The notes under the pieces are model-generated. The model did no database searches and had not been told where the DNA came from. It saw only the letters and a program-made list of their open reading frames with translations. A stretch of 64,000 bases of DNA from Escherichia phage chee24: the sequence record NC_047885.1; one strand, 5' to 3'. The translations under genes were made by a program, and so were the position numbers. Shown piece by piece: positions 1,783 through 64,000 of this stretch. The first letter of the stretch is position 1, and each line of letters opens with the position of its first letter.

Positions 1783-1784
1783 AT

Positions 1785-2213: not shown

Positions 2214-2222
2214 GGAGGCAGA

Positions 2223-2615: not shown

Positions 2616-2639
2616 TTTTTATTAGCTGAACTCTGATTA

Positions 2640-2663: not shown

Positions 2664-2706
2664 TCCGTACTCAAGACCAATGATAGCACCATCCGGAAAA
2701 TTTTAC

Positions 2707-6241: not shown

Positions 6242-6249
6242 AAATTTAT

Positions 6250-6278
6250 TTGCTTTCAGGAAAATTTTTCTGTATAAT
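6250..6278 (+). promoter_or_regulatory. strong early promoter, T5 PN25-like
   Basis: AAAATTTATTTGCTTTCAGGAAAATTTTTCTGTATAATAGATTCATAAATTTGAGAGAGGAG: AT-rich UP, -35 TTGCTT, 17-nt spacer, TG + TATAAT; matches the PN25 promoter as I recall it. Confidence 0.75.
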
Positions 6279-6309
6279 AGATTCATAAATTTGAGAGAGG
6301 AGTTTAAAT

Positions 6310-7014: not shown

Positions 7015-7258
7015 ACTAACTGATTTACTTAAAGATGGAGAAGTAAAAACTCTGTATCGTAGAAGCTGGGATAATGATAATAATGGCTTAGTGTTACTAA
7101 CTTTAGATGCTGACTCGGATGTAGCTACTCAGCATACCTGGGTAGCCGGTAACTATCCATATAGCGAGGTTGTTTCATTAACAGTATGCGAAGCTATTGC
7201 AGACGATTGGGAGGTTGCCAGCATCGAGGATATGCTCGCTGTTGGCCTGGTGGAGTAA
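7007..7258 (+). CDS. hypothetical protein
   Basis: GTG start overlapping the stop codon of 6310..7014 (translational coupling); acidic 83-aa product. Confidence 0.4.
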   Translation: MSRLTDLLKDGEVKTLYRRSWDNDNNGLVLLTLDADSDVATQHTWVAGNYPYSEVVSLTVCEAIADDWEVASIEDMLAVGLVE

Positions 7259-7275
7259 CTACTTAAAAATTTCAG

Positions 7276-7304
7276 TTGCTTAATCCTATAATTCTTGATA
7301 TAAT
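7276..7304 (+). promoter_or_regulatory. sigma70-type promoter (TTGCTT-17-TATAAT)
   Basis: TTGCTT AATCCTATAATTCTTGA TATAAT with TG-extended -10; about 55 nt upstream of the 7362 gene. Confidence 0.6.
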
Positions 7305-7361
7305 ATTCTCATAGTTTGAAAGAACTATTCTGTTTAATTCTTAATTAAGGAAATATAAAAT

Positions 7362-7772
7362 ATGACTACTCCAACTCAGTGGACTGATGAACTGTTCGAA
7401 AAAATGTCTTCCGAATACGTTGCTCGTATGGAGCAATTCCCAGAGGATGAACGTCCGGGTGTTAGCATGGAAATTGTTAGCGAAATTGCCCAGGAAAACG
7501 GTGTAACTCCGAACGGTTTTCGTATGAAGCTAACTAAAGCAGGTATGTATATCAAGAAAGCTGCTGGCTCCGCTTCTAAATCTAGCGCATCTGCTGGAGA
7601 AAAAGCTTCTGGTGGTTCTCGTACTTCCAAAGCCCAAGCTCATGCCGATCTTCGTTCAGCATTCTCTGATGCTGGCCTAGCACCAGATTTTCTGGATGAT
7701 GCAATTATCGACAAACTGACCGGTAAAGCGGCTGCCCATCTTGCAGAAGCAATCCGAGCTATCACTAAGTAA
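7362..7772 (+). CDS. hypothetical early protein, probably abundant
   Basis: 136 aa; promoter at 7276-7304 and RBS AAGGA; codon usage enriched for host-preferred codons (CTG, CGT, GCT, GGT) against an AT-rich background; Ala/Ser/Gly-rich linker. Confidence 0.55.
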   Translation: MTTPTQWTDELFEKMSSEYVARMEQFPEDERPGVSMEIVSEIAQENGVTPNGFRMKLTKAGMYIKKAAGSASKSSASAGEKASGGSRTSKAQAHADLRSAFSDAGLAPDFLDDAIIDKLTGKAAAHLAEAIRAITK

Positions 7773-7808
7773 TTTTTAGATAAATCCACCAACAAAAGGA
7801 ACACAGTT

Positions 7809-8105
7809 ATGACCAAAGCTGAAATTATCGCACAATGTGAAAAATTTGGTGAGTTTTATCTTCATTACGAGAAACTTCGTCAGAAAGGAACCACGTACCT
7901 TCAGGGTACGATGGAATTTGATCCAGCCCAAGATAAATATCTGGCTGAGCGTATTAAACGTGAACGTATTCGTAAAGCGAAAGATGATGAAATCCTTGTC
8001 TTCTCTCGTACTAATGATAGTTTCCGTTTTATTCCTGTCGAGAAAGTCCGTCGTGTGACTAGCCTCCAATCAGAGTTAGATCGTGCTTCTCCAGTAGGCC
8101 GATAA
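7809..8105 (+). CDS. hypothetical protein
   Basis: 98 aa; RBS AAGGA; followed by a rho-independent terminator at 8116-8137. Confidence 0.5.
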   Translation: MTKAEIIAQCEKFGEFYLHYEKLRQKGTTYLQGTMEFDPAQDKYLAERIKRERIRKAKDDEILVFSRTNDSFRFIPVEKVRRVTSLQSELDRASPVGR

Positions 8106-8115
8106 GAAACCAATT

Positions 8116-8137
8116 AGCCCCTATATGGGGCTTTTTG
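8116..8137 (+). terminator. rho-independent terminator
   Basis: AGCCCC-TATAT-GGGGCT followed by TTTTT, just after the stop of 7809..8105. Confidence 0.55.
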
Positions 8138-8155
8138 TGTATTTGGGATATGTAA

Positions 8156-8464
8156 ATGAGCGAACAGGTAAATCAAAACTATGAAGGACACGTTGATGAC
8201 CAGTCCATCATACTTTGGGAGAAGGAGGGAGAACAAGTAAGATTAACAGTATCTGAATTTCGTGGGAATCTATACATGGGTATTCGTTACTGGCTTCTTG
8301 ATATTAATGATGAATGGTTTCCAACGAAATCTGGCTTCTCTTTTCCTTACACCCTAGAAACAACATCACAGCTTTTCTATGCGTTTACACAGATTCTTAG
8401 CGAATCTGAGGTTTTACATGAAGTACAGAAACGAGCTGAAGAACTCAAAGCCAAGAATGCCTAG
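8156..8464 (+). CDS. hypothetical protein
   Basis: 102 aa; stop codon lies inside the terminator hairpin at 8450-8477. Confidence 0.5.
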   Translation: MSEQVNQNYEGHVDDQSIILWEKEGEQVRLTVSEFRGNLYMGIRYWLLDINDEWFPTKSGFSFPYTLETTSQLFYAFTQILSESEVLHEVQKRAEELKAKNA

Positions 8465-8477
8465 TTCTTGGCTTTTT
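8450..8477 (+). terminator. rho-independent terminator
   Basis: GCCAAGAA-TGCCTAG-TTCTTGGC followed by TTTTTCTTT; the stop codon of 8156..8464 is in the loop. Confidence 0.6.
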
Positions 8478-8491
8478 CTTTATAAATGTAT

Positions 8492-8520
8492 TTGCTTTCA
8501 ACTCAGTTTTGTTATATAAT
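8492..8520 (+). promoter_or_regulatory. sigma70-type promoter (TTGCTT-17-TATAAT)
   Basis: TTGCTT TCAACTCAGTTTTGTTA TATAAT then ATTTATATAAATTAATGAGAGG downstream box. Confidence 0.65.
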
Positions 8521-8549
8521 ATTTATATAAATTAATGAGAGGATCAATC

Positions 8550-8750
8550 ATGGCAATGACAATAACACTTCCCAAGATTCAAGCAAAACTTAATCTACTT
8601 TCCACAGCACGCATTAATTATCAAGATAGCATAGGCACAGTAAATCAAAAGGTGTACAAAGATGCGTTCCTGAAAGAATCTGCTGATTTGATGGATATGG
8701 TTACACAATATAATAAAGAACTCAAGATGGAAATCGCCGATGATGAATAA
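8550..8750 (+). CDS. hypothetical small protein
   Basis: ATG at 8550 with RBS GAGAGGA (the track ORF starts at 8535, inside the RBS); downstream of the promoter at 8492-8520; overlaps the ligase start. Confidence 0.4.
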   Translation: MAMTITLPKIQAKLNLLSTARINYQDSIGTVNQKVYKDAFLKESADLMDMVTQYNKELKMEIADDE

Positions 8751-9714
8751 TGTAAAAGGCTTTATTAAGCGTTGTCAAGAAGCATATTATCAGGGTATGT
8801 CTTTAATCTCTGATGAGGAGTATGATTGCCTGGTAAAACGCTTCCCGTTAGAAGAAGAGATCGGGCCTAAGGGTGATATTCCACATCTGTATCGTATGTA
8901 TTCTTTACAGAAAGTTTATTATAATCGTGGAGATAAACCCCCGTTTAACCCGTTAGGTCAAGTAGAAACTGATAAGTTAGATGGTTGTGCAATTTCTCTG
9001 CTATATATTAATGGCGAATTTGTTCAAGCACTAACTCGTGGTAACGGTATTCTGGGAAATGATGTCACAAGCAACGTAAGATTGCTGAACATCCCTAAAA
9101 AGATTTCCCAAAAAGTACCTACTCAAATCACTGGTGAAGTTCTAATTACAAAAGAAGTAGAAAATAAACGTAATTTTGCCTCTGGCGCTATTAACCTCAA
9201 AGATAGTGATGATTTCGTACAACGCATTGGAGAAGGCGGTTTAATCTTTGTTGCTTACGGTATCCAATGTTCTGCTGAATCTGTAGGTATTACAGAAGCA
9301 TATTTAAAAGATATGCTTTGGCTAGAGAATGAGAACTTCTTAACAGTTGTTAATGTGCGTTCCTTTTTTAAATGGATTCCGACGGACGGTAAAGTTGTTC
9401 GTATTAATGACAACAACAAATTCTTCCGTGAAGGCTGGACTAATAAATTCCCTCGTGGAGCATTCGCCATTAAAGAGGATGAAGAAGGCGAGATTACAAC
9501 TCTTACTAAAGTTGAATGGCAGGTAGGGGCTTCTGGTAAAGTAACTCCAGTCGGTTATTTTGAACCAGTAATTATTGATGATGCTACAATTGTTAAAGCG
9601 ACTCTTAATAACGTTGATTATATTAACTCTCTTGATCTAGAGATCGGTTGCCAGATTCGAGTGATTCGTGCTGGTGGTGTAATCCCGTGCATAGTAGAGC
9701 GAGTATACGATTAA
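8740..9714 (+). CDS. NAD-dependent DNA ligase, N-terminal subunit (adenylation and OB domains)
   Basis: Block KLDGCAISLLYINGEFVQALTRGNGILGNDVTSNVR aligns with the bacterial LigA KxDG adenylation motif region; OB-fold-like C-terminus (IRVIRAGGVIPCIVE). Confidence 0.85.
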   Translation: MMNNVKGFIKRCQEAYYQGMSLISDEEYDCLVKRFPLEEEIGPKGDIPHLYRMYSLQKVYYNRGDKPPFNPLGQVETDKLDGCAISLLYINGEFVQALTRGNGILGNDVTSNVRLLNIPKKISQKVPTQITGEVLITKEVENKRNFASGAINLKDSDDFVQRIGEGGLIFVAYGIQCSAESVGITEAYLKDMLWLENENFLTVVNVRSFFKWIPTDGKVVRINDNNKFFREGWTNKFPRGAFAIKEDEEGEITTLTKVEWQVGASGKVTPVGYFEPVIIDDATIVKATLNNVDYINSLDLEIGCQIRVIRAGGVIPCIVERVYD

Positions 9715-9764
9715 TACATAACCCTTTGCTACCCATCTACCATATCGGAATTATAAAGTGGTTA

Positions 9765-9793
9765 TTGACATTTCCGCCGCTTAGGTATATACT
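9765..9793 (+). promoter_or_regulatory. consensus-like sigma70 promoter (TTGACA-17-TATACT) inside the ligase inter-subunit spacer
   Basis: TTGACA TTTCCGCCGCTTAGGTA TATACT; no substantial ORF follows before the next promoter. Confidence 0.55.
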
Positions 9794-9857
9794 ATTATCA
9801 TTCAGTTGAGGGATAGAAAGTTATGGCGAGGGTAAGCAAAGTTAGTTAAAATTGTAG

Positions 9858-9886
9858 TTGCTAAATGCTTAAATACTTGCTATAAT
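9858..9886 (+). promoter_or_regulatory. sigma70-type promoter (TTGCTA-17-TATAAT) for the ligase C-terminal subunit
   Basis: TTGCTA AATGCTTAAATACTTGC TATAAT then ATTTATATAAATTGATAAGGAAG. Confidence 0.6.
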
Positions 9887-9916
9887 ATTTATATAAATTG
9901 ATAAGGAAGAAATTTG

Positions 9917-10696
9917 ATGAAAATCGAAATTCCAACACAATGTCCCTCTTGTGGTTCTAAGCTAGATCTTGTCAACGGACAATTATTCTGTCGTAATAAG
10001 TCCAACTGTCCAGCGCAATCAAGTAAGTTAATTGAGAACTTCTGTACAAAAATGAAGTTAAAGGGCTTTGGCCCAAAAACTATTGAGAAGCTGGAGCTGA
10101 CGAAGATTTCAGAACTATTTTACCTAACCGAAGAAGATTTGGTTAGAGCCGTGGGTAGCAAGGTTGCCGCTAAGTTAATTAGCGAATTAAATAATAAAGT
10201 TCGCGGAGACATTGACTTTGGTTCAGTTCTCGGTTCTTTAGGAATCCCTCTAATCGGAGAGGTTGCAGCAAAGAAATTGTCCCAAAATTGCACCAGTTTT
10301 CAAGATGTGAGAGCTGATGGCAGAGCTGGAGAAAATTATAAAGCCTGGCTAAATTCCCCACAAGGCAAGGATGTTATCGAATTACCGTGGAAATTCACAA
10401 CTGGTATTAAAGGTGCTAAAGCTGAGGTCATCATCACTGATGGTCTAGTAGCCCAACCAAACGGAATAACGGTATGTATTACCGGATCTTTGCAAGATTT
10501 TGCAAATAGAACGGATGCAACAAACTATTTAGAAGGTCTAGGATATACGGTTAAGAAATCCGTTACCAAAGACGTCAAATACCTAATCTGTGAGGATGAA
10601 TCGAAGCGTTCTTCCTCATCTTATAAGAAAGCCGAAACGAATGGGATAGAAATCCTGTCGATTAAAGAACTATTGGAGAAAAATAATAATGTCTAA
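9917..10696 (+). CDS. NAD-dependent DNA ligase, C-terminal subunit (Zn finger, HhH, BRCT)
   Basis: CPSCGSKLDLVNGQLFCRNKSNCPAQ matches the LigA Cys4 zinc finger; GFGPKTIEKL helix-hairpin-helix; BRCT-like C-terminus (ITGSL...ILSIKELLE). ATG at 9917 with RBS AAGGAAG. Confidence 0.8.
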   Translation: MKIEIPTQCPSCGSKLDLVNGQLFCRNKSNCPAQSSKLIENFCTKMKLKGFGPKTIEKLELTKISELFYLTEEDLVRAVGSKVAAKLISELNNKVRGDIDFGSVLGSLGIPLIGEVAAKKLSQNCTSFQDVRADGRAGENYKAWLNSPQGKDVIELPWKFTTGIKGAKAEVIITDGLVAQPNGITVCITGSLQDFANRTDATNYLEGLGYTVKKSVTKDVKYLICEDESKRSSSSYKKAETNGIEILSIKELLEKNNNV

Positions 10697-54000: not shown

Positions 54001-54048
54001 GTCACGGCATGTTATCATTACACACCGTGACTATTTCAACTTTAATTA

Positions 54049-54783
54049 TTACGCAACTTTTAATTTCTCAATATATTGTTGCGGGCTGCAACTATATTCT
54101 GCGCGTTCTTCTTCGGTCATACCTTCCCAACATAATTGCAGGCGGTCGGCTAGGAACTGATAATCATTATCATCCTCAAGAGATTCATCAATAAAGGTTT
54201 CACCTATCAATGTCACGCCGATTGATAGAATATCGTTAACGGCTTGTGCGTCCAGCGTTTTAAATCCGTATGACGCTGCCGCTGATAGCACGCCTTTATG
54301 ATCATCAATCATTGTAAAATCAGCGTTCGGATATAATTGTTTGAATAGCCCAAAATAGTAACTTTTATAAACTGCGTCTTTGCTGTGGTATATCTCGCTA
54401 ACTTTATCAGCCTCAAAATATTTGTGTAGTGTATCGCGGGAAAATACACGGATATTACTATCACCACGACCGCGCAAGCCTTGTTTGCGCAAATAATAAT
54501 AGTCCGACTTGCTCATCAGTCGAGCGGTGCAAATAATGTTTAATGTATTTGCGTCATTCATGCACTGGCGCATATATGTAACAAGGGGCAATAAAGTATC
54601 TTGCATTATTAAATCATGTTTGCAGGCTTCATTTTTATACTTATTTAAATCTAAATTGCCCTCGCTATCAAAGCAAGGCGCTACACGATGGAAAGAATTA
54701 ATGATAGTGCCGTCCAGATCCCAAATCATGACGCGGGAAATATGCGGGAAATTACGGGTAATATTCATTTTAACTTGATTCAT
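54049..54783 (-). CDS. HAD-superfamily phosphatase, candidate 5'-deoxyribonucleotidase (T5 Dmp-like)
   Basis: 244 aa; HAD motif I IWDLDGTIINS; pre-early position next to the A1-like gene. Specific substrate is inferred from T5 knowledge. Confidence 0.5.
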   Translation of the reverse strand: MNQVKMNITRNFPHISRVMIWDLDGTIINSFHRVAPCFDSEGNLDLNKYKNEACKHDLIMQDTLLPLVTYMRQCMNDANTLNIICTARLMSKSDYYYLRKQGLRGRGDSNIRVFSRDTLHKYFEADKVSEIYHSKDAVYKSYYFGLFKQLYPNADFTMIDDHKGVLSAAASYGFKTLDAQAVNDILSIGVTLIGETFIDESLEDDNDYQFLADRLQLCWEGMTEEERAEYSCSPQQYIEKLKVA

Positions 54784-54863
54784 TTTGTTACGTTCTCCAT
54801 TAAAGGGATTAGATTAATTCAGCATTACCCGCTATTTATAAGCGGGTAATAATAAATTAACTA

Positions 54864-55256
54864 TTAAAGACCATACGCCAACGCATCAGCAATAAAACTA
54901 ATATCTTCACCAGATACACCGGAACGAATCCCCGCACAAGTATATACCTTTGCGCTGGTCAATTGATCATCGAGGCAAGCGGGGCAAGGTGCGACTACTG
55001 CGAAAGCTAAACCAGATTTTACCGCGTCAATAATGATGGTTTCTTGTTTCACCGTATCAACATAAACGCCTGCGGCCTTAATGTAACTACTTGCGCGGCC
55101 TTGCGTATAGGCAAAGGTAGTAACCTGCAAAGCGTCATTGAAATCTAATAGGTCATCAATAACGTGCCCCGCCTCGACGTGGTAACGTTCGCCATTAGAA
55201 TAAACCAGAACAATTGAGGATTGAGCGCGATCGAATGGAATATTTTGCTTTTTCAT
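54864..55256 (-). CDS. hypothetical protein with a possible zinc-deaminase-like signature
   Basis: 130 aa; contains HVEAGH and APCPAC, reminiscent of the H-x-E ... PCxxC zinc ligands of cytidine/dCMP deaminases, but with atypical spacing. Confidence 0.4.
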   Translation of the reverse strand: MKKQNIPFDRAQSSIVLVYSNGERYHVEAGHVIDDLLDFNDALQVTTFAYTQGRASSYIKAAGVYVDTVKQETIIIDAVKSGLAFAVVAPCPACLDDQLTSAKVYTCAGIRSGVSGEDISFIADALAYGL

Positions 55257-55294
55257 ATTTATAAAACTCCAATTAGTTTAATAAGGGGTTTAAT

Positions 55295-55585
55295 TTACTT
55301 GATAATAATTTGCATTTGATACGGCGTTAATTCACCGTTTACGGGTAAATTATTATCGCTTAGCCACTCATAAAAAGCACCATCATCATCAAAAGGGACA
55401 ATATCGTTATCACGGGAATCGACGGAAATAATACCATCCGTATTAGTTTTGGCGGCTAGGATAGGCCCGAAGCTGTAAACTTTATCAGATTCCATTTCAT
55501 CCGGTGAAATGAATACTTTTTCGTCCAATGTTTTGGGTAATGTAACTTTCATTTTTTGACTCCTATAATAGCGGCTATATTTCAA
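55295..55585 (-). CDS. hypothetical protein
   Basis: 96-aa ORF between the A1-like gene and 54864..55256; no motifs recognised. Confidence 0.45.
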   Translation of the reverse strand: MKYSRYYRSQKMKVTLPKTLDEKVFISPDEMESDKVYSFGPILAAKTNTDGIISVDSRDNDIVPFDDDGAFYEWLSDNNLPVNGELTPYQMQIIIK

Positions 55586-55605
55586 GCCGCTAGGGTATTA
55601 ATTAT

Positions 55606-57270
55606 TTACGCGAAAAATTTACCGTTTTTAAAGTCGATCAAAGTGCGCTGACCGTTTGCATAGGTAATAACATGCGTTTGCGTCCAGCTTGACGCGCCAA
55701 CGTTGTAACCCATGTCCAGACTACCAGACACGCCAGCGGTGTATACGCCGCCGTAAATGCTGGCGGTATGAGTGTGCCCCGTGTTTAATTTGCCCAATTT
55801 CTTAAACTGTTTCGGATTGCCACGGCTCCCGTTTATGCCATTGTGACCGTGTACGCCGCATTCAATACCTGCAATCTTGAAAGATTGATCAGTGGTCAGA
55901 AAAATGGCGTTAAATTCACAACCTGCAACCTTGCGCAGCGCATAATCTAGCACGTTGAAAGTATCGTCATGATCACCGATTGCCGCGTAAATTGCAGCAT
56001 TTAGGCGGTGATATAGTTCCGCGTTTGCTGGATCGTCTTTAATGTTAGCATTACGATCATCTAACCAGCGGGATAGCGCCAGATCATGATTAGACTCAAC
56101 AATGATTGTTTGCGAAAAATCGCGCTCCATTGACTCCAGCACGCGACCGGTATCGATAAGATCATCCAGAACTTTATCACGTCCGGCGGCATACTGTTTT
56201 GCTAGGAATACACCCGAAGCGCGGTTGTGATGGTTGCGTGATGTAAAGTCGTGAACGTCATGGATAAACTGATATTTTGGTTTAAGAATATCAAGCAAGC
56301 TATTTTCGCCAGCCCATGACGCAACGGCGCAAGCGTCATCCAATTTTTCGGCGTGTACGTCGCCATATTGTAAACCTAAAACGTGCCCCGTTGTTTCATA
56401 ACATCCGGCGGGAGTGGCGCAAACATTCAGATCATAAAACACCCCGCTTTCGTCCATTGTTTCAAGCTGGCGCACAAAAAACTCACCGTCTTCGTCGAAC
56501 TCAACAATCAGCGCCCCGAAATTATGCAGTGCTTCCGCTTTCTGTCCTGCTTTCTGCTGAATGTAGTTTTTAAGCGTTGCCGTTCCGGTTGAATACATAC
56601 GGCGCACAATTTCACCTTTTAAAGCTGGAACGCTTTCGGCGGTAATTTTTGCCGCTCCAATTGCCAGACCTTCGATATTTAAAGCCGTTGCAGTTTCTGC
56701 AAATCCAGAAAGCGGATAATCTGCGGTTGGCAAAACATTAATTTCAGCCATGAAAGCAAAGCGGCGGTTATTTAAAAACACGTTTTTGCTGCAAATATAT
56801 TTATCGAACGCGGAATCATATTTGATTCCGTCGGCGCCCTCGCCATTTTGAAAACCGTTTTTATTATAAATATACTTGCTAACTAGCAAATCAGCACCAA
56901 TAAATTGGGCGTATTGTTCAAGCGAGGCTAAAAAGTTTTTATGAGGGAACGTATTATTCTGAATCGATGTAATAATAAAGCGTTTACCCTGCTTTACTTC
57001 CCATTGTTCAACCGTGCTAGAAACAATCCCCGCCGCTTCTGGGCGCTCATCGTTTTTAATGGCTTTTGCTACTTTCGCCGCTTTCGGTTTCGCTGGTTTA
57101 TTTGCTTCCAGCCAATCGCAAATTGCGGTGGAGTGTTTTGTTGTATCATAAACCGCTTTAGAAATATCGTCGCACACTTCCAGCTTAGTAGCGCGCAGGC
57201 GTTTACCGTAGAAATTGAAATCAGCGGCCATTTTCAGGATAACGGTTTGTTTTTCTGCGGAAATAACCAT
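55606..57270 (-). CDS. A1-like pre-early protein with calcineurin-like metallophosphatase motifs
   Basis: 554 aa; metallophosphoesterase motifs LQYGDVHAE, IVESNHD and GHTHTASIYGG; size and context match T5 A1 as I remember it. Confidence 0.65.
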   Translation of the reverse strand: MVISAEKQTVILKMAADFNFYGKRLRATKLEVCDDISKAVYDTTKHSTAICDWLEANKPAKPKAAKVAKAIKNDERPEAAGIVSSTVEQWEVKQGKRFIITSIQNNTFPHKNFLASLEQYAQFIGADLLVSKYIYNKNGFQNGEGADGIKYDSAFDKYICSKNVFLNNRRFAFMAEINVLPTADYPLSGFAETATALNIEGLAIGAAKITAESVPALKGEIVRRMYSTGTATLKNYIQQKAGQKAEALHNFGALIVEFDEDGEFFVRQLETMDESGVFYDLNVCATPAGCYETTGHVLGLQYGDVHAEKLDDACAVASWAGENSLLDILKPKYQFIHDVHDFTSRNHHNRASGVFLAKQYAAGRDKVLDDLIDTGRVLESMERDFSQTIIVESNHDLALSRWLDDRNANIKDDPANAELYHRLNAAIYAAIGDHDDTFNVLDYALRKVAGCEFNAIFLTTDQSFKIAGIECGVHGHNGINGSRGNPKQFKKLGKLNTGHTHTASIYGGVYTAGVSGSLDMGYNVGASSWTQTHVITYANGQRTLIDFKNGKFFA

Positions 57271-57368
57271 AATAATAAAACTCCATTAAAGGGATTAAAA
57301 AACGTTTGTTATTGGCAAATATTGCCAAATATAACGCCGCTCATTTACAGCGTTATAATTTGCAACAT

Positions 57369-57566
57369 TTAACTAATTGGCACTAGGCTAGAACTAACAC
57401 CACAAACAACGGCAGCAATAAAACAAAGTAAGCCCAAACGCTTTGCTAATTTAGATTTACGTTTAAAATAATACGAATCTAAATCATTTTGAAAATAAGC
57501 GAACAATAGGGAGGCCGCTACAATAAATAAGCCTAAAATTAGCGATTCAGTGGGAAAGAAAACCAT
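57369..57566 (-). CDS. small membrane protein (two predicted TM helices)
   Basis: Start moved to the ATG at 57566 (RBS GGAG); the track ORF extends to 57614. Hydrophobic segments LILGLFIVAASLLFAYF and LGLLCFIAAVVCGVSSSL. Confidence 0.4.
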   Translation of the reverse strand: MVFFPTESLILGLFIVAASLLFAYFQNDLDSYYFKRKSKLAKRLGLLCFIAAVVCGVSSSLVPIS

Positions 57567-57623
57567 TTTAATAACTCCAGTCAAAGGGAAATTATAGTGG
57601 GGAATATTCCCCACTAATTAAAT

Positions 57624-58031
57624 TTATTCGCCTGCGGCTTGTTTTACTTCATCGGCAACGCCTAACAGTTGCGCCACGGCGTCCAGCGTTTCTAATTTTG
57701 CGCTTTCCAGCGATGCCAGATCGTCGGCGTCTTTGATAATGCCGGAATCAATAGCATGTTTAGCGATAACGCGCACATAGTGAGCCTTACGAATTGAACT
57801 GCCGCCGCCAACTTTGCGCGGCTTATCGCTTTTCTGGTACGCTTTTGCGCTGGTCAATTTTGAGCGAACAGACACGGGAGAAGCCGCACCAACTGTTTTT
57901 GCGATCTCTTTCAGGCCGTCGCTGTTGGCGAACTCCAAGCCGTTTTCATTGATCAACTGTTGATACATGGTAACAGCCTGCTGGGTGTTTTCTTCATTCC
58001 AAGAGAATTTTGCGGTTTTAGCGTTAGTCAT
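57624..58031 (-). CDS. hypothetical pre-early protein (A2 position in T5-like phages)
   Basis: 135 aa immediately upstream (- strand) of the A1-like gene; GC-rich codon usage; identification as A2 is by synteny only. Confidence 0.45.
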   Translation of the reverse strand: MTNAKTAKFSWNEENTQQAVTMYQQLINENGLEFANSDGLKEIAKTVGAASPVSVRSKLTSAKAYQKSDKPRKVGGGSSIRKAHYVRVIAKHAIDSGIIKDADDLASLESAKLETLDAVAQLLGVADEVKQAAGE

Positions 58032-58129
58032 GATTATAACTCCTATTGATTTAATTTAAGGGATAAGATTAACATAATGTTAATCGTTATATACCCCGAA
58101 CTACTGGGGTATATAAAGTTAACACTAAA

Positions 58130-58381
58130 TTATAAAACAGCTTCCCATTTTTCGTTGCGCTGGGCAACCTTTACAACGTCGCCGGATTTAACCCGAACGC
58201 TATAAATAGTTTTCCCGTTGTTACTCCGTTCCGTTTCAGCGTATACCGCATCAATTACATCAAACGGCATAAGCGCCGCGCCTTTAATGCGTTCGGCCTT
58301 TCCGGTTAATTCGTCCGTTTTAGTAACGAAAGGAATAAAAACGGATTGACCAATTTTTGGCGCATTAGTAACGTTTTTCAT
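58130..58381 (-). CDS. hypothetical protein
   Basis: 83 aa; RBS GGAG; preceded by a 52-bp composite palindrome and followed by a GC-clamped hairpin. Confidence 0.45.
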   Translation of the reverse strand: MKNVTNAPKIGQSVFIPFVTKTDELTGKAERIKGAALMPFDVIDAVYAETERSNNGKTIYSVRVKSGDVVKVAQRNEKWEAVL

Positions 58382-58405
58382 GGTATAAACTCCAGTTTAT
58401 TCAGT

Positions 58406-58457
58406 GGATTGTTCCGCATTACCTGCTAGAAAGTAGCAGGTAATAAGCAACAATCCG
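58406..58457. promoter_or_regulatory. 52-bp composite palindrome (operator-like or 5'-UTR structure)
   Basis: GGATTGTT-CCGC-ATTACCTGCTA-GAAAG-TAGCAGGTAAT-AAGC-AACAATCC: perfect 11-bp inner arms and 8-bp outer arms, about 25 bp upstream of the start of 58130..58381. Confidence 0.55.
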
Positions 58458-58609
58458 CTCGCCATTATAATCAATTTAAAGAACTCCACTCAGGCCGCTA
58501 TATCCCAGTTAGGGGGCGGGACACATTATGGTAAGTGCCGACCGTCAAATTTTATCAAGTTATCGCTCTCATCGAACTGGGTACATCTTAAAGCCTATCG
58601 GCTAGGGTG

Positions 58610-58813
58610 TCAAACAGTTTTTTGCAGTTTTTTATGATTTTCTTTCAGGTCAATCATAATATTGCGCCAGATCATTTCCAAACCTTGCTGGCGGCCTTTC
58701 TTGTACTGCATGAATCTGAATTTTACGGATTGTTGAGCTATTGTCAACAGCTTTCTAGTATTGCCATCCAATTTTTTGGCGGGTTTACCAGTGATTAATA
58801 AAGTTTGTTTCAT
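58610..58813 (-). CDS. hypothetical small basic protein
   Basis: 67 aa, Lys-rich; start overlaps the stop of an upstream 52-codon ORF (ATGA). Confidence 0.35.
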   Translation of the reverse strand: MKQTLLITGKPAKKLDGNTRKLLTIAQQSVKFRFMQYKKGRQQGLEMIWRNIMIDLKENHKKLQKTV

Positions 58814-58968
58814 TCCACGCCCTCCAGTGCATACAGACCTTTACCATCATTACAGAATACAACCGCTTCTGAATGGTTGGCGTGATATTCGTTTGCCGCT
58901 TTTACCCATTGCTCGATCTTTTCGATCGTGTCATGGGTTGCTGGATGATCGTTATATATTGTTTGCAT
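58810..58968 (-). CDS. hypothetical small protein (52 aa)
   Basis: Not in the ORF track. ATG with AAGGA 9 nt upstream; translation MQTIYNDHPATHDTIEKIEQWVKAANEYHANHSEAVVFCNDGKGLYALEGVE; coupled to 58610..58813. Confidence 0.3.
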   Translation of the reverse strand: MQTIYNDHPATHDTIEKIEQWVKAANEYHANHSEAVVFCNDGKGLYALEGVE

Positions 58969-59763
58969 ATCTGCGATTCCTTATAATGAATAAGTTTACC
59001 GCCGATAGACTTTAAGATATACCCAATTTTTAAAGAGCGCGGCGGTAAACTTCCCGCCGTGTAGTTCGTCATTGCCGCCCTACGTGATAAATAATAGGGT
59101 ATTCCCGAAAATGGCGCAACCTTATTTTTGTAAAGAAACGTAAAGAAAGCAACACGTTCGGCGCTCACCTAAGTTTAAAGGAAACGGGCGCGCGAATACC
59201 ATAAAACCAAGCAGATAGGCAAGTAATTTTTTCATTTATATTTGCCTTGCCCTACTTGACAAAATCTAAAAAGCTCGTGGTAGCGATAAACGGCTTATCC
59301 CCTTATGATGGGATGGCTAAAAACTTCATCGCGTTCTAGGACGTTTTAGGCGCATTCTAGCCTTGTTGATAACTTATCCCCAAAAGCAAAAATGAAATTT
59401 TCCTAGTTATCCACTTGACTTTTATTTTCCAGTGGATAACTACTTATTTTATAAAATTAATTAATTGACTTTTATTTGTTAGTGTGTATCGGAAAGATAG
59501 CAGACTAATAATTGTTAGGATTATAATCATGCTGGTGGATTGTAACAGCCTGAACTATTAGCAGACTATTAATCTCGGAAAATCTCATTAGCCAACTAAC
59601 TATTTCATATTATATAATATACATATAAATTAATGAGAAATAATAATTATAAGAAATCGTAACCGATAGAAATAATAACTACAAAAATAATCACCGTTAT
59701 AATAATAACGATAAGAAACTATCGGCCTAAGTGAGAACCACTATCATTTAAGTTATTCACAAA

Positions 59764-59833
59764 GTTATCCACAGCACAAAATGATTTGACACGATAGGCG
59801 GCGATATAAGGACTTATCCACAGACTTATCCAC
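59764..59833 (+). promoter_or_regulatory. cluster of three consensus DnaA boxes (TTATCCACA)
   Basis: Perfect 9-mers at about 59764, 59813 and 59825; further near-matches TTATCCACT / AGTGGATAA as an inverted pair at about 59407 and 59431. Confidence 0.5.
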
Positions 59834-59841
59834 ATGTTATC

Positions 59842-59861
59842 CTACTGTATATTTATACAGG
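59842..59861. promoter_or_regulatory. LexA (SOS) box-like palindrome
   Basis: TACTGTATATTTATACAGGG fits CTGT-N8-ACAG with AT-rich spacer; immediately downstream of the DnaA boxes. Confidence 0.45.
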
Positions 59862-60126
59862 GTAAAAAGGTAGTGTTAACAACTGCAATCAATTTTAAGC
59901 GGCCTAAAACGCTTTCTAACGAGCAAAACGCTATAGGGTAATATTAAAGTAAAGCCTCAACGCGTCGCCCTGGTGACTTCGCCGTGTTTTGCTCTTTACT
60001 ATACCGCTGCGCGTTTAACATAAAAATAAGCGTTAGGCAAGGAAAATAAAAAGGTAAAATAATATTTGCCCCTAGAAAGAAAATACCTTTATCATTCACT
60101 CACCGATTAACGAGGGAGGCCAACAA

Positions 60127-61119
60127 ATGCGGCTATATAAACCAGATAACGCAACCGTCTTAAAAGGTGCGTTGCGTAACCTGCTGGATGGTAGCAGAAC
60201 AACCAGCATTAAACATTTTGTTTTCAATATTGAAACACTTCATCGTAATTTTCTTGATGATTACGATGCTTATAATATGAATAGTTTTCTACCGTTATAT
60301 AATCAAGGGGCAACGCTTGTTTTATATAATCAGGAATCTCACTTGCTTACTAGTCGAGGGCCAGATACTGATTTTATTATAGTGAAAGGCAGTACAGTAA
60401 AAGCCTATGATGCGGGGGCGGGCTTAGAAGTTTTCACGATAGAAAATTATGAGCCTTATGATAAGGATCTTTATGACGTAGAAAATTTTCTCGATTCATT
60501 TTGGCGTTATTTATCAATTGGGTGGAATCGATCAGATTATCACGGGTATCGTTTTGCGGCTATAATGGCTTTTGATGATAACGGTAATTTTTTGCTACCG
60601 TCGGAATTATACCCGTATGTATATAATGATTTAATAGAGGAGGCTGGTTTTACTTTCTGGAAAGATGAAGATCAGCCTATTGACAACACGGAAAAACATG
60701 CTGTAAATTCTAACACTCAAAGCGTTAACACTCAAATTACTGAAAACAAAGGAAAAAATACCATGACCAAGATCGCTAATATCGTTGCCGCCAATAAGTC
60801 TGCTGTTGTAAATGCTGCAAAACTGGAAGCGGGTAAAATTGCATTAACTCAAATCACGAAAGTAGCGGCTAAAAAAGCGCCGTTTATGATTAAAGGTTAT
60901 ATTGATACGCCGATTGGTCGGGTAGTTATTGCCAACCTGCTGAGCGTAGCGGTTGACCAGTACGCCCCAGCTAACCAGAAAGCGAAAGCGGTAGCAGGTG
61001 CAGCTATGGAAGCGGCTATGTTAGAAATGGTGCAAAGTTTTAACATCGCTGAAATGATCGATGAAATGGTGAAAGGTATTGATATTTCTACTTTTACCAC
61101 TAGCACCGAAAGCGAGTAA
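60127..61119 (+). CDS. hypothetical protein (330 aa)
   Basis: Strong RBS GAGGGAGG before the ATG; first gene of the + strand operon leaving the DnaA/LexA-box control region; Ala/Lys-rich helical C-terminal third; no motifs recognised. Confidence 0.6.
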   Translation: MRLYKPDNATVLKGALRNLLDGSRTTSIKHFVFNIETLHRNFLDDYDAYNMNSFLPLYNQGATLVLYNQESHLLTSRGPDTDFIIVKGSTVKAYDAGAGLEVFTIENYEPYDKDLYDVENFLDSFWRYLSIGWNRSDYHGYRFAAIMAFDDNGNFLLPSELYPYVYNDLIEEAGFTFWKDEDQPIDNTEKHAVNSNTQSVNTQITENKGKNTMTKIANIVAANKSAVVNAAKLEAGKIALTQITKVAAKKAPFMIKGYIDTPIGRVVIANLLSVAVDQYAPANQKAKAVAGAAMEAAMLEMVQSFNIAEMIDEMVKGIDISTFTTSTESE

Positions 61120-61128
61120 TAATATTAA

Positions 61129-61150
61129 GCGGGGATTGTTACCCCGCTTT
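61129..61150 (+). terminator. putative terminator
   Basis: GCGGGG-ATTGTTA-CCCCGC followed by TTT ACTATT; weak U-tract. Confidence 0.45.
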
Positions 61151-61183
61151 ACTATTCCCTTGTTAATTAATAGGAGGCTAATT

Positions 61184-61678
61184 ATGCCAGAAGAAAAATA
61201 TGGCTTCTCACTGGGAGAAGTGAGTACGGCTAAACATGATATGATTGTTTTAGTCGATTGCCATACCGGTTATTGCGGGGAAGGGAATACTGAGGAATAT
61301 TTTGTTCCTGCTGGTACGGATCTCGACGCTTTCGCCCATGAAATGGCTGTTGATAATGCTTCTCGTTTTGGTAGCGATGGTTACGAAGACGAAGAAACGG
61401 GCGATTGGTATGAGAATGATAATGTATATGCAAGCCTTTATCATTATCAATTAAGTAAATCCGGCACATATGTAAACGGCGGTGATCCTATTAATTCCGT
61501 CATGAAATTAATTATTAAATATGGCGGCGTCGAGATAGTCGATAACAAAGCGGTAATATATGCAAACCGATTAAAACAGCTTGTTTATATCCCTGATAGT
61601 ACCCGATGGGAGGAATATGCTGTTTTGCATGATGAATTAAAACGATGTTTCAATATTGAAACCTTACAAGTAGTTTAA
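61184..61678 (+). CDS. hypothetical acidic protein (164 aa)
   Basis: ATG at 61184 with RBS TAGGAGG (track ORF starts at 61079); followed by a rho-independent terminator. Confidence 0.55.
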   Translation: MPEEKYGFSLGEVSTAKHDMIVLVDCHTGYCGEGNTEEYFVPAGTDLDAFAHEMAVDNASRFGSDGYEDEETGDWYENDNVYASLYHYQLSKSGTYVNGGDPINSVMKLIIKYGGVEIVDNKAVIYANRLKQLVYIPDSTRWEEYAVLHDELKRCFNIETLQVV

Positions 61679-61693
61679 TGTAAAGTTTTGTAA

Positions 61694-61722
61694 AGGCCGC
61701 CTCTTATGGTGGCCTTTTTTGT
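61694..61722 (+). terminator. rho-independent terminator
   Basis: AGGCCGCC-TCTTAT-GGTGGCCT followed by TTTTTTTG. Confidence 0.6.
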
Positions 61723-61786
61723 TATAATGCCTTTACACCGTTTAAGGACGGTTGAAAATTTTCCCAAAAAATTTTGGAGGCTTATA

Positions 61787-62017
61787 ATGGTTGCTTATTC
61801 TTCTTCTGACGCTCTTTTCACTGGAAAAGGCTGGGTATCAAATCGCTGGATCATTCAAGAAATGGTGCAAGAATATGGCATTGCTAAAACTTACACTACC
61901 ATTCAGGCGCTTTATGATAATGATCAAATTGATCAGCAAACGGCGGGCTTTTTGCTGGATACCCTAAAAGCGGAACACTGCACCAAAAAACAAGCTGCAA
62001 AAATTGTTTTAATGTAA
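61787..62017 (+). CDS. hypothetical protein (76 aa)
   Basis: ATG at 61787 with RBS GGAGG (track ORF starts at 61706, inside the terminator). Confidence 0.45.
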   Translation: MVAYSSSDALFTGKGWVSNRWIIQEMVQEYGIAKTYTTIQALYDNDQIDQQTAGFLLDTLKAEHCTKKQAAKIVLM

Positions 62018-62064
62018 TTAATAAAGGGGGATACTATATCCCCCACTAACTAGAGAGAATAAAA

Positions 62065-62211
62065 ATGGTTATTTTTCGAGCTATTCTAGCAGGTATCTTG
62101 GGCGCTATTTTATCACTTTTTGCAATAGCTTTCGGCGTTCACGCGGTTATTATTGGCGCGGGGATTGCCGTTTTTTCTTATCTGCTGGGCTGCATGAATA
62201 AAGGAGAATAA
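62065..62211 (+). CDS. small membrane protein (48 aa, two hydrophobic segments)
   Basis: Not in the ORF track. Translation MVIFRAILAGILGAILSLFAIAFGVHAVIIGAGIAVFSYLLGCMNKGE; stop closely followed by the RBS of the next gene. Confidence 0.35.
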   Translation: MVIFRAILAGILGAILSLFAIAFGVHAVIIGAGIAVFSYLLGCMNKGE

Positions 62212-62213
62212 AA

Positions 62214-62426
62214 ATGATCCGCAACGTTTCCCTTGCCCGCTCCAAAGGCTTTAAGCTGGTGGACGTTAACACGTTTGAGCGGGAGGATTGTAAAATCGAA
62301 TATGTAGCACGCAACAAAAATGCCTTTCGTGTTACAGAAAAGAAATTTGACAAGCGCGGCAACGTGATCGCTGAAACGGTTAAACACTTTGCCACCTTTT
62401 ACGCTGCGTTTCGTGGGGTGTTATAA
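62214..62426 (+). CDS. hypothetical protein (70 aa)
   Basis: RBS AAAGGAG 8 nt before the ATG. Confidence 0.45.
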   Translation: MIRNVSLARSKGFKLVDVNTFEREDCKIEYVARNKNAFRVTEKKFDKRGNVIAETVKHFATFYAAFRGVL

Positions 62427-62427
62427 A

Positions 62428-62772
62428 ATGGTTATTTATGAGGGCAATCGTTTTGTTGCTAATTGCCGTCCGGCATTACTAGCAAACTATTTAAATCAGG
62501 TTTCACCTGAATATAAAGGCGTCATTAATATTTACGAGGGTAAGGCGCACTATAAAATTAATGCGGTCGTTGCCCGTGAATTAGCATTTCAATTTTTGAC
62601 CTTTGCATCTTGTGACGTTCAGGTTATGGGTGAAGCATTAATTGCAGAAAATGAAGATGATTTTATTAATATTTTCCGCAAGATATGCACCGAGCGCCTG
62701 ATCATGAAAGGCGCATATATTCAATCCACTGCGGATAGCATTGAAACAGCGTTTCGAAAGGTGGCGCAATGA
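62428..62772 (+). CDS. hypothetical protein (114 aa)
   Basis: ATG at 62428 directly after the stop of the previous gene (track ORF starts at 62389). Confidence 0.5.
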   Translation: MVIYEGNRFVANCRPALLANYLNQVSPEYKGVINIYEGKAHYKINAVVARELAFQFLTFASCDVQVMGEALIAENEDDFINIFRKICTERLIMKGAYIQSTADSIETAFRKVAQ

Positions 62773-62927
62773 AAAAGTTTTTAATAGCTGGTATGTTTCC
62801 TTTGTTGCCTTATGTAATTTGCTGGGCTTTATACGCTCATGGTGCTAGTGTTCCCGGTGTGGCCTCGTTTGGTGTATCGGCTGGTTTTCTAACCGGACTA
62901 TTGGCAAGCGTATATCTGCGCAAATAA
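62769..62927 (+). CDS. small membrane protein (52 aa)
   Basis: Not in the ORF track. ATGA overlap with the upstream stop; translation MKKFLIAGMFPLLPYVICWALYAHGASVPGVASFGVSAGFLTGLLASVYLRK. Confidence 0.35.
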   Translation: MKKFLIAGMFPLLPYVICWALYAHGASVPGVASFGVSAGFLTGLLASVYLRK

Positions 62928-62945
62928 TTAATAACGGGAGTTATT

Positions 62946-63140
62946 ATGAGCAATAAAATTGTTGTAACCAAAATCAGTACAATGGTTGACGTTTTTTATG
63001 TGCCCGATACGCCGGAAAACCGGCAAGCGGTCGAGCGTGGCGAGTATGATAAAGTGATTTATGATCACGATGGTTACTATCAACATTTGGTGGATTCCTA
63101 CGGGGAGGGGGAAAAAATCACGCATCGACTACCAGACTAG
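62946..63140 (+). CDS. hypothetical protein (64 aa)
   Basis: RBS GGGAG; last ORF before the repeat-rich non-coding region. Confidence 0.45.
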   Translation: MSNKIVVTKISTMVDVFYVPDTPENRQAVERGEYDKVIYDHDGYYQHLVDSYGEGEKITHRLPD

Positions 63141-63180
63141 TAATCACGGGGGCGCAACTACCAGGGAGTGCCCCCAATTC

Positions 63181-63205
63181 TCAAATGAGAATGATTCTCA
63201 TTTGA
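63181..63205. repeat. 25-bp near-perfect palindrome TCAAATGAGAATGATTCTCATTTGA
   Basis: 12-bp arms around one central base; arm sequence AATGAGAAT recurs in the tandem repeats at 63520-63715 and in the element at 53955-54000. Confidence 0.6.
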
Positions 63206-63397
63206 CCGCGCCCGCGATGGTTAGCCTGCTAATGATTAGGGTGTTACGTGTCGCCTTGTGTGATCGTTAGCAGGCTAACTAATTTTTAAGCCTCCTCCAA
63301 TTTTGCCCTTGTTTTAGTATCCCCATCAAAATTAAACGCGTTAGAATGCGATTCAGGACGTTTTAGGCCTATATTAGAATTATTCACTACATAGGAG

Positions 63398-63417
63398 TAC
63401 TGTATATTTATACAGTA
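63398..63417. promoter_or_regulatory. LexA (SOS) box-like palindrome
   Basis: TACTGTATATTTATACAGTA: one mismatch to the E. coli LexA consensus TACTGTATATATATACAGTA as I recall it. Confidence 0.45.
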
Positions 63418-63425
63418 GAATAACC

Positions 63426-63508
63426 TGGGGATAAGTCTGTGGATAACGCCTCAAAATGGCTAGGATTCTGTCAAGTCAAATCGTGCTGTTGATAAGTCTG
63501 TGGATAAC
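63426..63508 (-). promoter_or_regulatory. DnaA boxes in inverted orientation
   Basis: Two copies of GATAAGTCTGTGGATAAC (reverse complement contains TTATCCACA) at about 63429 and 63491; the 18-mer TTATCCACAGACTTATCC is shared with 59813-59830 in opposite orientation. Confidence 0.45.
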
Positions 63509-63519
63509 TTAAATAACAG

Positions 63520-63715
63520 TGTTTCTCACTTCCATTTTTAAATGCGAATCATTATCATTTGCATTTCACTGTCTAACTGATAATCATTTCACTTTTTAAA
63601 TGAGAATCATTTCACTTTTTGAATAGTTCTCATTCCGCTTTTTAAATGAGAATAATTATCATTCGCATTTCACTTTTTAAATGAGATTGATTCTCATTAT
63701 CATTCGCATTTAGGC
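63520..63715. repeat. tandem direct repeats (core CTTTTTAAATGAGAAT) interleaved with ATTATCATTCGCATTTCACT units
   Basis: Five core copies at about 63535, 63593, 63616 (diverged), 63639 and 63673; three copies of the second unit. Confidence 0.6.
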
Positions 63716-63740
63716 GAGCAGGGCAATTGCCCTGCGCTTT

Positions 63741-63964
63741 TGTGCAAATCCGACATTGCTCCACGGGTGTTACGTGCGGGCGTGTATGTGCGAATCCGAC
63801 AATTTTTGGTAGTGTGCGAATCCGACCCGAAAAATTTTTATAGTGTGCAAATCCGACAATGAATTTTCCCAAAAACTCCAGCAATCTCGAACTGCGTTCG
63901 AATCCTGTGGAATTAGCTAGAATATGTGCAAATCCGACATGTGTTGAGATGTGCGAATCCGACA
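63741..63964 (+). repeat. iteron-like array: six direct copies of TGTGCRAATCCGACA
   Basis: Copies at about 63741, 63787, 63813, 63844, 63925 and 63950, all in the same orientation with irregular spacing; array reaches the window end. Confidence 0.65.
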
Positions 63965-64000
63965 AGATTTTTGTGACTTCGATTGGAGGGTGTGTGATTG

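Follow-up and report, generated by a model that had tools for sequence, protein, structure and literature searches.

Introduction

Phage T5 halts the transfer of its DNA after 8% of the genome has entered the cell and later resumes it, and both the stop and the restart have been an open question since the 1960s. It is a classical observation that the arrest needs no protein synthesis, and a pre-existing host factor is therefore the natural suspect. Here, we describe a DNA element with which host proteins could be involved, located in Escherichia phage chee24 (NC_047885.1), a T5-like phage of which a stretch of 64,000 nucleotides was analysed (the whole stretch is called the window below). The element lies in the untranslated region at positions 58975–60126 and recurs, inverted, 3.5 kb to the right; in both copies, an array of DnaA boxes directly adjoins a palindrome that has the form of a LexA-binding site.

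The closest described counterparts are the repeat regions of the first-step-transfer (FST) DNA of T5, which have been compared in 25 T5-like phages (Davison 2020 preprint). Eight DnaA boxes were described there, in pairs 3 bp apart and on both arms of an inverted repeat, the proximal set included, and membrane-bound DnaA was proposed as the arrester of injection; the DnaA part of the present finding is thus already known. The same preprint regards the palindrome PalD as one of several possible restriction/cleavage sites. A 2026 PNAS paper characterises the stop signal by repeats, inverted repeats, palindromes, and DnaA boxes and describes its mechanism as poorly understood. The chee24 locus has the same position and architecture as the T5 FST repeat regions, that is, inverted repeat C (IRC), a spacer, and inverted repeat D (IRD), answered by inverted IRD′, spacer, and IRC′, with paired DnaA boxes, nested IRB/IRB′ repeats, and repeat arrays to the right. 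The difference lies in how the palindrome is read, as the published accounts consulted call it ‘PalD’ or the end of IRD and make no mention of LexA or SOS. Neither ‘LexA’ nor ‘SOS’ appears in the text of the Davison 2020 preprint, and a literature search for T5, Tequintavirus, or Demerecviridae together with LexA or SOS box, which did not cover Davison 2015, Heusterspreute 1987, and Wang 2005, returned nothing relevant. Reading palindrome D, or the end of IRD, as a putative near-consensus LexA operator appears to be new, and so do the family-wide top conservation of the LexA core and the recurring DnaA/LexA composite.

Two other classes of sites invite comparison. With the SOS boxes of E. coli and of mobile elements, the palindromes share the 16-bp CTGT-N8-ACAG form, the AT-rich centre, and the TA flanks. 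In contrast to such boxes, they reside in a strictly virulent phage, have no overlapping promoter, and form an inverted pair 3.5 kb apart, each member being fused to a DnaA-box array and one of them facing no gene. With the DnaA-oligomerisation regions of oriC, with datA/DARS, and with DnaA roadblocks, the arrays have in common 9-mers in the same orientation, an 11–12 bp periodicity, and weak boxes beside strong ones. They differ from these in lacking a conserved unwinding element and nearby replication genes, and in that a LexA site directly abuts the array, with a degenerate third box overlapping it.

Two LexA-type palindromes fused to DnaA-box arrays

A preliminary description of this DNA had placed a LexA-type palindrome next to clustered DnaA boxes, in company with an inverted pair of near-DnaA boxes, an 11-bp inverted repeat, and a TATAAT sequence, and every one of these features was found within 1 nt of the position given. 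The palindrome, TACTGTATATTTATACAGGG (59843–59862), agrees with TACTG(TA)5CAGTA at 17 of 20 positions and has a heterology index of 3.79. What that description had not included is a distal twin, TACTGTATATTTATACAGTA (63398–63417), which is the ‘palindrome D’ of T5, matches the consensus at 19 of 20 positions, and has an index of 1.08. The core CTGTATATTTATACAG is present twice in the window, at 59845–59860 and, identical, at 63400–63415, the latter within the second arm of a 132-nt inverted repeat. In the T5 record, the distal box bears only the label ‘palindrome D’ (misc_feature, 9330–9349).

The heterology index was built from 19 E. coli SOS boxes, and its values are approximate; the 19 genuine boxes themselves score 0.3–9.8. 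Both sites are CTGT-N8-ACAG palindromes with an AT-rich centre whose scores fall inside the range of genuine boxes, and in predicted quality they equal strong chromosomal SOS boxes. The next best site in the window, outside both modules, has an index of 8.6. Since the rest of the genome of phage pork27, a member of the same species (positions 9900–57000), holds nothing better than 8.75, LexA-type boxes occur in the terminal repeats only, with two in each. When the 1152-bp region was simulated 5000 times with a Markov-1 model, 0.02% of the runs produced a site at least as good as 3.79; for the 64-kb window, the same was true of 1 run in 200.

The perfect DnaA box TTATCCACA is found five times in the window, against 0.63 expected, a count that none of 100 shuffles reached. 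All five copies are confined to two small clusters, starting at 59765, 59814, and 59826 on the plus strand and, in the twin module, at 63438 and 63499 on the minus strand. The preliminary description had allowed that its motifs might score no better than shuffled AT-rich background; for the DnaA boxes and the LexA-type site alike, they stand clear of it.

The DnaA/LexA cluster constitutes one arm of the 132-nt inverted repeat (59729–59860/63400–63531), the two arms of which are 78% complementary. Each arm contains four DnaA boxes and one LexA box, arranged as a DnaA pair, a spacer, a second DnaA pair, about 8 bp, and the LexA-type box. In the proximal arm, sequence inspection and a repeat search define pair 1 (TTATTCACA, AAG, TTATCCACA; 59753–59773, plus strand) and, 61 nt away from start to start, pair 2 (TTATCCACA, GAC, TTATCCACA; 59814–59834, plus strand). 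The distal arm has DnaA-type boxes on the minus strand at 63426–63434, 63438–63446, 63487–63495, and 63499–63507, and its pairs (63426–63446 and 63487–63507), like those of the proximal arm, are spaced at 3 bp, with two pairs per arm as in the T5 family. Behind pair 2 stands a third, degenerate DnaA-like 9-mer, TTATCCTAC (59837–59845, plus strand), the last 3 nt of which would overlap the first three bases of the LexA-type 20-mer; GGTTATCC, ahead of the palindrome, is conserved in the alignment of modules.

According to BLAST, the proximal arm (plus orientation) is the equivalent of T5 IRC-spacer-IRD, matching T5 6022–6152 and, inverted, 9332–9463, whereas the distal arm (minus orientation), recovered by both BLAST and an inverted-repeat search, is the equivalent of IRD′-spacer-IRC′ and forms part of the candidate region for the injection stop. 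The coordinates in T5 are 6022–6060 for IRC, 6112–6152 for IRD, and 9332–9462 for IRD′/IRC′, so the inverted partner of about 131 bp near the inner repeat end, as known from the T5 family, is present here. The LexA-type boxes occupy the inner ends of the arms and face inward to the 3.5-kb rightward pre-early cassette. The distal twin (63398–63531) follows the proximal module on its right at a distance of 3.5 kb, and about 0.6 kb of the terminal repeat remain between the twin and the inner repeat end.

Conservation across the family

By means of the A2 protein, 38 T5-like loci were recovered from IMG/VR and scanned with a heterology index of 7 or less as the cut-off for a site. Exactly two LexA-type sites, in the same two places, are present in 37 of the 38 loci, and in the remaining one the upstream flank is too short. 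Across the 38 loci, the distal box is nearly invariant, and the proximal box has a weaker outer half; the latter is kept in close relatives, with one half-site reduced to TTGT in several of them. Since the entire Repeat Region 2 is conserved among close relatives, a comparison within this circle alone is uninformative.

Distant Demerecviridae were compared as well, comprising Pectobacterium My1, Klebsiella Sugarland, Proteus phage 1, the Vibrio phages phi3, ABurr, and 70E37-5, and Aeromonas AhSzw-1, whose A1 proteins are 32–72% identical to that of the window; the module persists even where the identity of A1 is as low as 32–45%. All seven carry LexA-type boxes, with heterology indices of 1.1–5.6, in non-coding DNA of the terminal region, and these boxes adjoin DnaA boxes that are either perfect TTATCCACA copies or, in My1 and Proteus phage 1, one-mismatch variants. 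Simulation of six of these loci (all but Sugarland) gave an expectation of 0–0.007 LexA-type sites per locus, compared to 1–3 observed. Conservation in related phages, on which the preliminary description had made its proposal depend, thus holds for LexA- and DnaA-type boxes both in T5-like loci and in distant Demerecviridae, and the LexA-type site is conserved in relatives whose hosts share the gammaproteobacterial LexA motif. In the Rhizobium phages RHph_N1_10 and RHph_X3_9, whose hosts have a different LexA motif, A1 lies inside replication modules; as these phages are without a T5-like pre-early repeat, they are uninformative as a natural motif swap.

In an alignment of 13 modules, ACTG..T..TACAG of the LexA core supplies 10 of the 14 invariant columns, so that no other element of the module, the DnaA boxes included, is as well conserved as the core. 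The 7-bp arms of the palindrome are fixed, while its two centre bases (59852–59853 and 63407–63408; loci L004–L041) are either AA or TT. No co-variation of this dinucleotide was seen between the two boxes of a genome, for which the combinations AA/TT, AA/AA, TT/TT, and TT/AA all occur. A free centre between fixed arms fits a dimer that would not read the centre. Among phages with annotated repeats, namely BF23, T5, pork27, My1, and phi3, the distal box is situated 523–1030 bp inside the boundary of the terminal repeat. Vibrio phi3 has the distal module only, as do the ‘Type 4’ phages of Davison, and therefore the distal copy is universal and the proximal copy optional.

A published T5 deletion removes the proximal copy

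A T5 mutant deleted for ‘hegG to 017’ has been reported to be viable, with small plaques, and the repeats were not discussed by its authors (2026 preprint). The ends of this deletion were mapped by placing the primers of Supplementary Table S1 of that preprint on AY587007. With the left arm reaching to about 5392 and the right arm beginning at 9082, approximately 5393–9081 is missing, corresponding to about 59445–63150 of the window. All of Repeat Region 2 is taken out, which comprises the proximal IRC-spacer-IRD arm with its DnaA and LexA boxes and the gene 011 promoter, and palC, palindrome D, and IRD′ are retained. Given that the mutant is viable, the proximal module is not essential for two-step transfer or for growth in the laboratory.

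Genomic setting and other elements

The window corresponds to the right end of the genome. Its first base is base 56622 of pork27, and positions 54033–64000 equal the 9967-bp terminal repeat of that phage (left terminal repeat, 1–9967) with 99.99% identity, which places the region under study in the right terminal repeat. The 1152 bp of 58975–60126 are 100% identical to pork27 4943–6094, annotated there as ‘left terminal repeat’, and to the corresponding DNA of pork29, saus47N, saus111K, and poul124, all T5-like phages from meat that belong to the species Tequintavirus chee24. Many other Tequintavirus and Epseptimavirus genomes show 88–92% identity, and 449 phage records match in total. To the left lies a leftward pre-early operon with a 52-amino-acid open reading frame (ORF) and the genes for DUF7416, DUF7177 (in the position of T5 hdi), A2, A1, and dmp; to the right, eight rightward ORFs follow, the first of which (60127) encodes a DUF7566 protein equivalent to that of T5 gene 011. 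The T5-family setting on which the preliminary description had drawn is therefore borne out, the region lying in a long terminal repeat, between leftward dmp-A1-A2 and rightward pre-early operons.

With repeat regions as defined in the Davison 2020 preprint and T5 annotation from AY587007, the untranslated central region of the right terminal repeat (58975–60126) is the fusion of T5 ‘Repeat Region 1’ (58975–59469) and ‘Repeat Region 2’ (59730–60126), without the HNH-gene insert; by BLAST, it matches T5 4896–5418, 5942–6030, and 6022–6416. Small ORFs of 37, 88, 35, 51, and 30 amino acids inside it were rejected as genes on account of stops and frameshifts in relatives, and the region is effectively non-coding. 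An Rfam scan of 58000–64000 with E ≤ 1 gave sub-threshold noise only, with no family matched.

Several elements accompany the DnaA/LexA arms. Immediately upstream of the 52-amino-acid leftward ORF, there is a perfect 11-bp inverted repeat, GTTTACCGCCG (58994–59004) and CGGCGGTAAAC (59040–59050), with a 35-nt loop. At 59364–59382, two variant DnaA boxes, TGTTGATAA (reverse complement TTATCAACA) and TTATCCCCA, are separated by a single C and diverge; boxes of this type are named DnaA* in the Davison 2020 preprint. An inverted-repeat search also identified, at 59404–59442, the inverted pair of one-mismatch DnaA boxes TTATCCACT (59407–59415) and AGTGGATAA (59432–59440), surrounded by 15-nt arms (59404–59418/59428–59442) that are 93% complementary. 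The whole DnaA/LexA arm is nested within the larger IRB/IRB′ inverted repeat, and the equivalent of T5 inverted repeat B′ lies at 59893–59918, with its partner near 59335–59360 (approximate coordinates, mapped from T5 IRB, 5285–5310, and IRB′, 6184–6209). A motif, AGGACGTTTTAGGC/GCCTAAAACG, that belongs to IRB/IRB′ is found beside each DnaA-box cluster, in direct orientation at 59338–59351 and 63355–63368 and inverted at 59902–59911, and a similar CTAAAACGC is present in the spacer of the Vibrio modules.

A T5-type promoter-like site consisting of TAGCCA, 18 nt, and TATAAT (59613–59618) was located by a consensus scan (10 of 12 matches) at 59589–59618 on the plus strand. It points rightward into the DnaA/LexA arm, and its TATAAT is followed by ATACATATAAATTAATGAG. 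This block reaches 90% conservation or more in 25 close relatives and is also present in T5 and BF23, and the T5 and BF23 records contain no plus-strand annotation that matches it. Between it and the arm, a direct-repeat search revealed an AT-rich block of approximately 32-nt repeats (59636–59717). Two more promoter-like sites on the plus strand (60034–60063 and 60066–60095; consensus scan) precede the first rightward gene at 60127; together, they correspond to the T5 ‘putative pre-early promoter T5P4’ (annotated 6331–6420) upstream of gene 011, and a 2026 preprint counts a promoter in front of that gene among those characterised by experiment. A promoter built on TTGACA of the conserved ‘spacer’ was considered and rejected, as inspection by eye revealed no acceptable −10 element at 16–18 nt in any lineage.

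Two further observations concern the stop region. Fur-box-like palindromes (e.g., AATGAGAATGATTCTCATT and GAGAATAATTATCATTC) are present there at 63177–63203, 63538–63562, and 63642–63707, and also elsewhere at 53959 and 54153–54177; seven sites with at most 5 mismatches to GATAATGATAATCATTATC fall within about 660 bp, compared to 0.05 expected, although they overlap repeat units and are not independent. In addition, six copies of TGTGC(G/A)AATCCGAC, the ‘direct repeat D’ of T5, lie at 63741–63963 in the last 260 bp of the terminal repeat.

DnaA/LexA composites outside the family

The composite was searched for as TTATCCACA-N(5–35)-CTGTAT-N4-ATACAG in IMG/VR and, with a gap of 2–25 and one genome per species, in bacteria. 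In IMG/VR, 79 stretches were obtained, about half of them from Demerecviridae. In bacteria, the composite is rare, with 15 stretches over 185,579 species. The IMG/VR matches also include P2/186-like elements, in which the box presumably functions as a normal SOS operator.

Several groups of uncultured phage contigs have modules made of a DnaA pair, a LexA box, and a DnaA pair, located in intergenic DNA between late and early-looking genes. In L073 (5354), L075 (2191, minus strand), L049 (12271), L120 (6705), L079, L082, and L121, TTATCCACAGGTTATCCACA directly adjoins CTGTAT....ATACAG, often with DnaA pairs on both sides. L073, L075, L049, L120, and L082 resemble the T5-type modules in having TTATCCACA-GG-TTATCCACA beside CTGTAT....ATACAG in intergenic DNA near early-looking genes; they differ in that the genomes are about 35–60 kb where known, and the modules may be homologous or convergent. 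Neither A1 nor A2 was found in the fetched loci of these contigs, the flanks of which are limited, and the terminases of these phages are only distantly related to those of cultured phages. In L082, a 76-amino-acid ORF (6321–6551, plus strand) about 1 kb from the module encodes a LexA DNA-binding domain alone (PF01726, E = 2 × 10−11), without the peptidase domain, and the protein may be a non-cleavable LexA mimic. L120 and L097 share the palindrome AATGAGAATCATTCTCATT with the T5-type stop region (63177–63203 of the window), and in both it stands beside the DnaA/LexA module.

Candidate readers and functions of the composite

The preliminary description had proposed that host DnaA and LexA could gate replication initiation, pre-early expression, or first-step DNA transfer, and these possibilities fare differently. 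A DnaA-dependent origin or replication control element, in which the AT-rich neighbour would be unwound and LexA would act as a modulator, might account for four or five DnaA-type boxes in one orientation and with an 11–12 bp periodicity beside 59636–59717. This block, however, is poorly conserved in close relatives, shorter in BF23, and absent from T5, and so does not qualify as a conserved unwinding element; moreover, the proximal module is deletable, T5 origins were mapped to the middle of the genome by electron microscopy, and replication genes are not on the first-step DNA (Davison 2020 preprint), and the prevailing view already has no initiation in the terminal repeats, all of which renders a role in replication initiation extremely improbable. 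It is also conceivable that LexA at 59843–59862 represses a pre-early unit as in a classical SOS operator, for example one transcribed from the TATAAT at 59613 through the module into the rightward operon, with DnaA as a second control layer and with de-repression through RecA-dependent LexA cleavage upon host DNA breakdown. LexA operators are widely used by mobile elements, including phage 186 tum, CTXphi rstA, and colicin genes; the boxes have the predicted quality of strong SOS operators, the same composite search retrieved P2/186-like contigs, and the conserved promoter-like site does point into the module, which in T5 starts a few tens of bp from the TATAAT. On the other hand, a sigma-70-like consensus scan found no promoter-like site overlapping either LexA-type box or within about 60 nt of it, nor anything within 59800–59900, and since neither box has an overlapping promoter, the module is unlike a classical SOS operator. 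The nearest candidates are 59589–59618 and 60034–60095, so the box is about 230 nt downstream of the one and about 200 nt upstream of the gene-011-type promoter, and efficient roadblocking of elongation is not a known property of LexA. Given also that the distal twin faces no gene and that T5 can do without both the proximal module and the entire rightward operon, gating of pre-early expression in this classical manner is rather improbable.

The main rival is a reader encoded by the phage. A2, alone or together with A1, might bind the palindrome, or A1/A2 might cut there, thereby releasing the arrested DNA or joining the repeats, in which case the resemblance to an SOS box would be incidental or a means of competing with LexA. 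Second-step transfer requires A2, a dimeric protein that binds double-stranded DNA (cited in the Davison 2020 preprint), and PalD is listed by Davison among the candidate cleavage palindromes. Among the homologues of A2 (57624–58031, minus strand), which range from Escherichia to Aeromonas phages with 33–64% identity, an S..SVR.KL segment (S51, V55, R56, K58, L59) is invariant and resembles the recognition helix of a putative helix-turn-helix. The unrelated phage group with a protein made of the LexA DNA-binding domain only, about 1 kb from a similar module, indicates that phage proteins targeting LexA boxes exist. For A2 itself, a role as LexA mimic was rejected, as it shows no BLASTP similarity to E. 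coli LexA, no Pfam match, and no solved relative for its family profile, and a tblastn search for a LexA-like gene, extended over the window and the remainder of pork27, was negative. A phage-encoded reader is nevertheless unlikely, because a 19/20 match to the LexA consensus that is kept from Escherichia to Vibrio and Aeromonas lineages is hard to explain without LexA, and because the same module occurs in contigs whose fetched loci, limited in flank as they are, yielded neither A1 nor A2. Alternatively, the inverted repeats could have no sequence-specific function and be recombination linkers or scars around an exchangeable cassette, homogenised by gene conversion, with the motifs as by-products. 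This would suit the cassette between the arms, which varies more than any other part of the repeat and in some lineages has its transcription on the other strand, and arms that are only 78% complementary; yet the motifs persist where the surrounding non-coding DNA no longer aligns, and conservation peaks on the LexA core and the DnaA 9-mers, so that such an origin of the motifs is very improbable.

The reading that we favour is that the modules are landing pads for pre-existing host DnaA and LexA on the first-step-transfer DNA, to which we give about an even chance (approximately 0.5). The cis-sequence equals host consensus sites and remains unchanged while phage proteins diverge to about one-third identity, which argues for readers that are constant and encoded by the host. 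Moreover, DnaA and LexA are both present before infection and therefore fit an arrest without protein synthesis. As for the proposals of the preliminary description, first-step transfer is the plausible one, considering that the twin lies in the mapped injection-stop region in five phages. Upon entry, host DnaA and LexA would load on the first-step DNA without new protein synthesis, and the resulting nucleoprotein complex would hold or organise this DNA. In one version, the complex would clamp the segment that entered last near the membrane and thus contribute to the pause in transfer, extending the DnaA-anchor idea of Davison; in another, RNA polymerase would meet it as a roadblock and be confined to the pre-early cassette. 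Of the two copies, the distal one would help to bring about the pause or to insulate the cassette, and the proximal one would be accessory. Any specific downstream mechanism of this kind is less likely than the loading of the host proteins as such and is put forward tentatively.

It should be noted that a number of points weigh against this reading. The copy within 58975–60126 is dispensable, as our own primer mapping shows. It is not obvious how a complex bound to DNA inside the cell would halt the DNA still to come, and a clamp would require a membrane tether and a short, stiff linker. A1 and A2 are needed for the restart of T5 transfer, and amber mutants in A2 break down the host DNA but go no further; consequently, loss of LexA alone cannot be the restart signal. 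The running text of a genome-wide E. coli screen with T5 among its phages names neither lexA nor dnaA, though such screens detect resistance only. The LexA matrix is approximate, the DnaA and LexA sites are predicted, and the invariant putative recognition helix of A2 may leave room for a phage-encoded reader of the palindrome. That the readers of the sites are DnaA and LexA, and not a phage protein, we infer from the sequences, and the same applies to every functional step above.

A more far-reaching scheme would make host LexA and DnaA the pre-existing host component of a two-step checkpoint, in which they load and arrest the DNA, A1-driven destruction of host DNA follows, and RecA-activated LexA self-cleavage serves as a timer that licenses the second step together with A2, the composite having been recruited or exchanged by unrelated virulent phages. 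As a whole, this scheme is a long shot; its restart timer based on LexA cleavage is attractive but cannot be sufficient.

Implications for T5-like phages

Should the sites turn out not to be bound by LexA, an intensively studied region is still better annotated, and the dispensability of the proximal copy is shown all the same. The recurring DnaA-box/LexA-box composite is also flagged in other, uncultured phages, and the near-consensus LexA operator, if it is one, gives phage engineering a precise 16-bp target. The published host candidate for the arrest, DnaA, was put forward on the strength of its boxes alone, and LexA would add a second host protein, one that is easily manipulated. Thus, on motif evidence only, the result may provide a handle on the old problem of how T5 DNA transfer stops and restarts.

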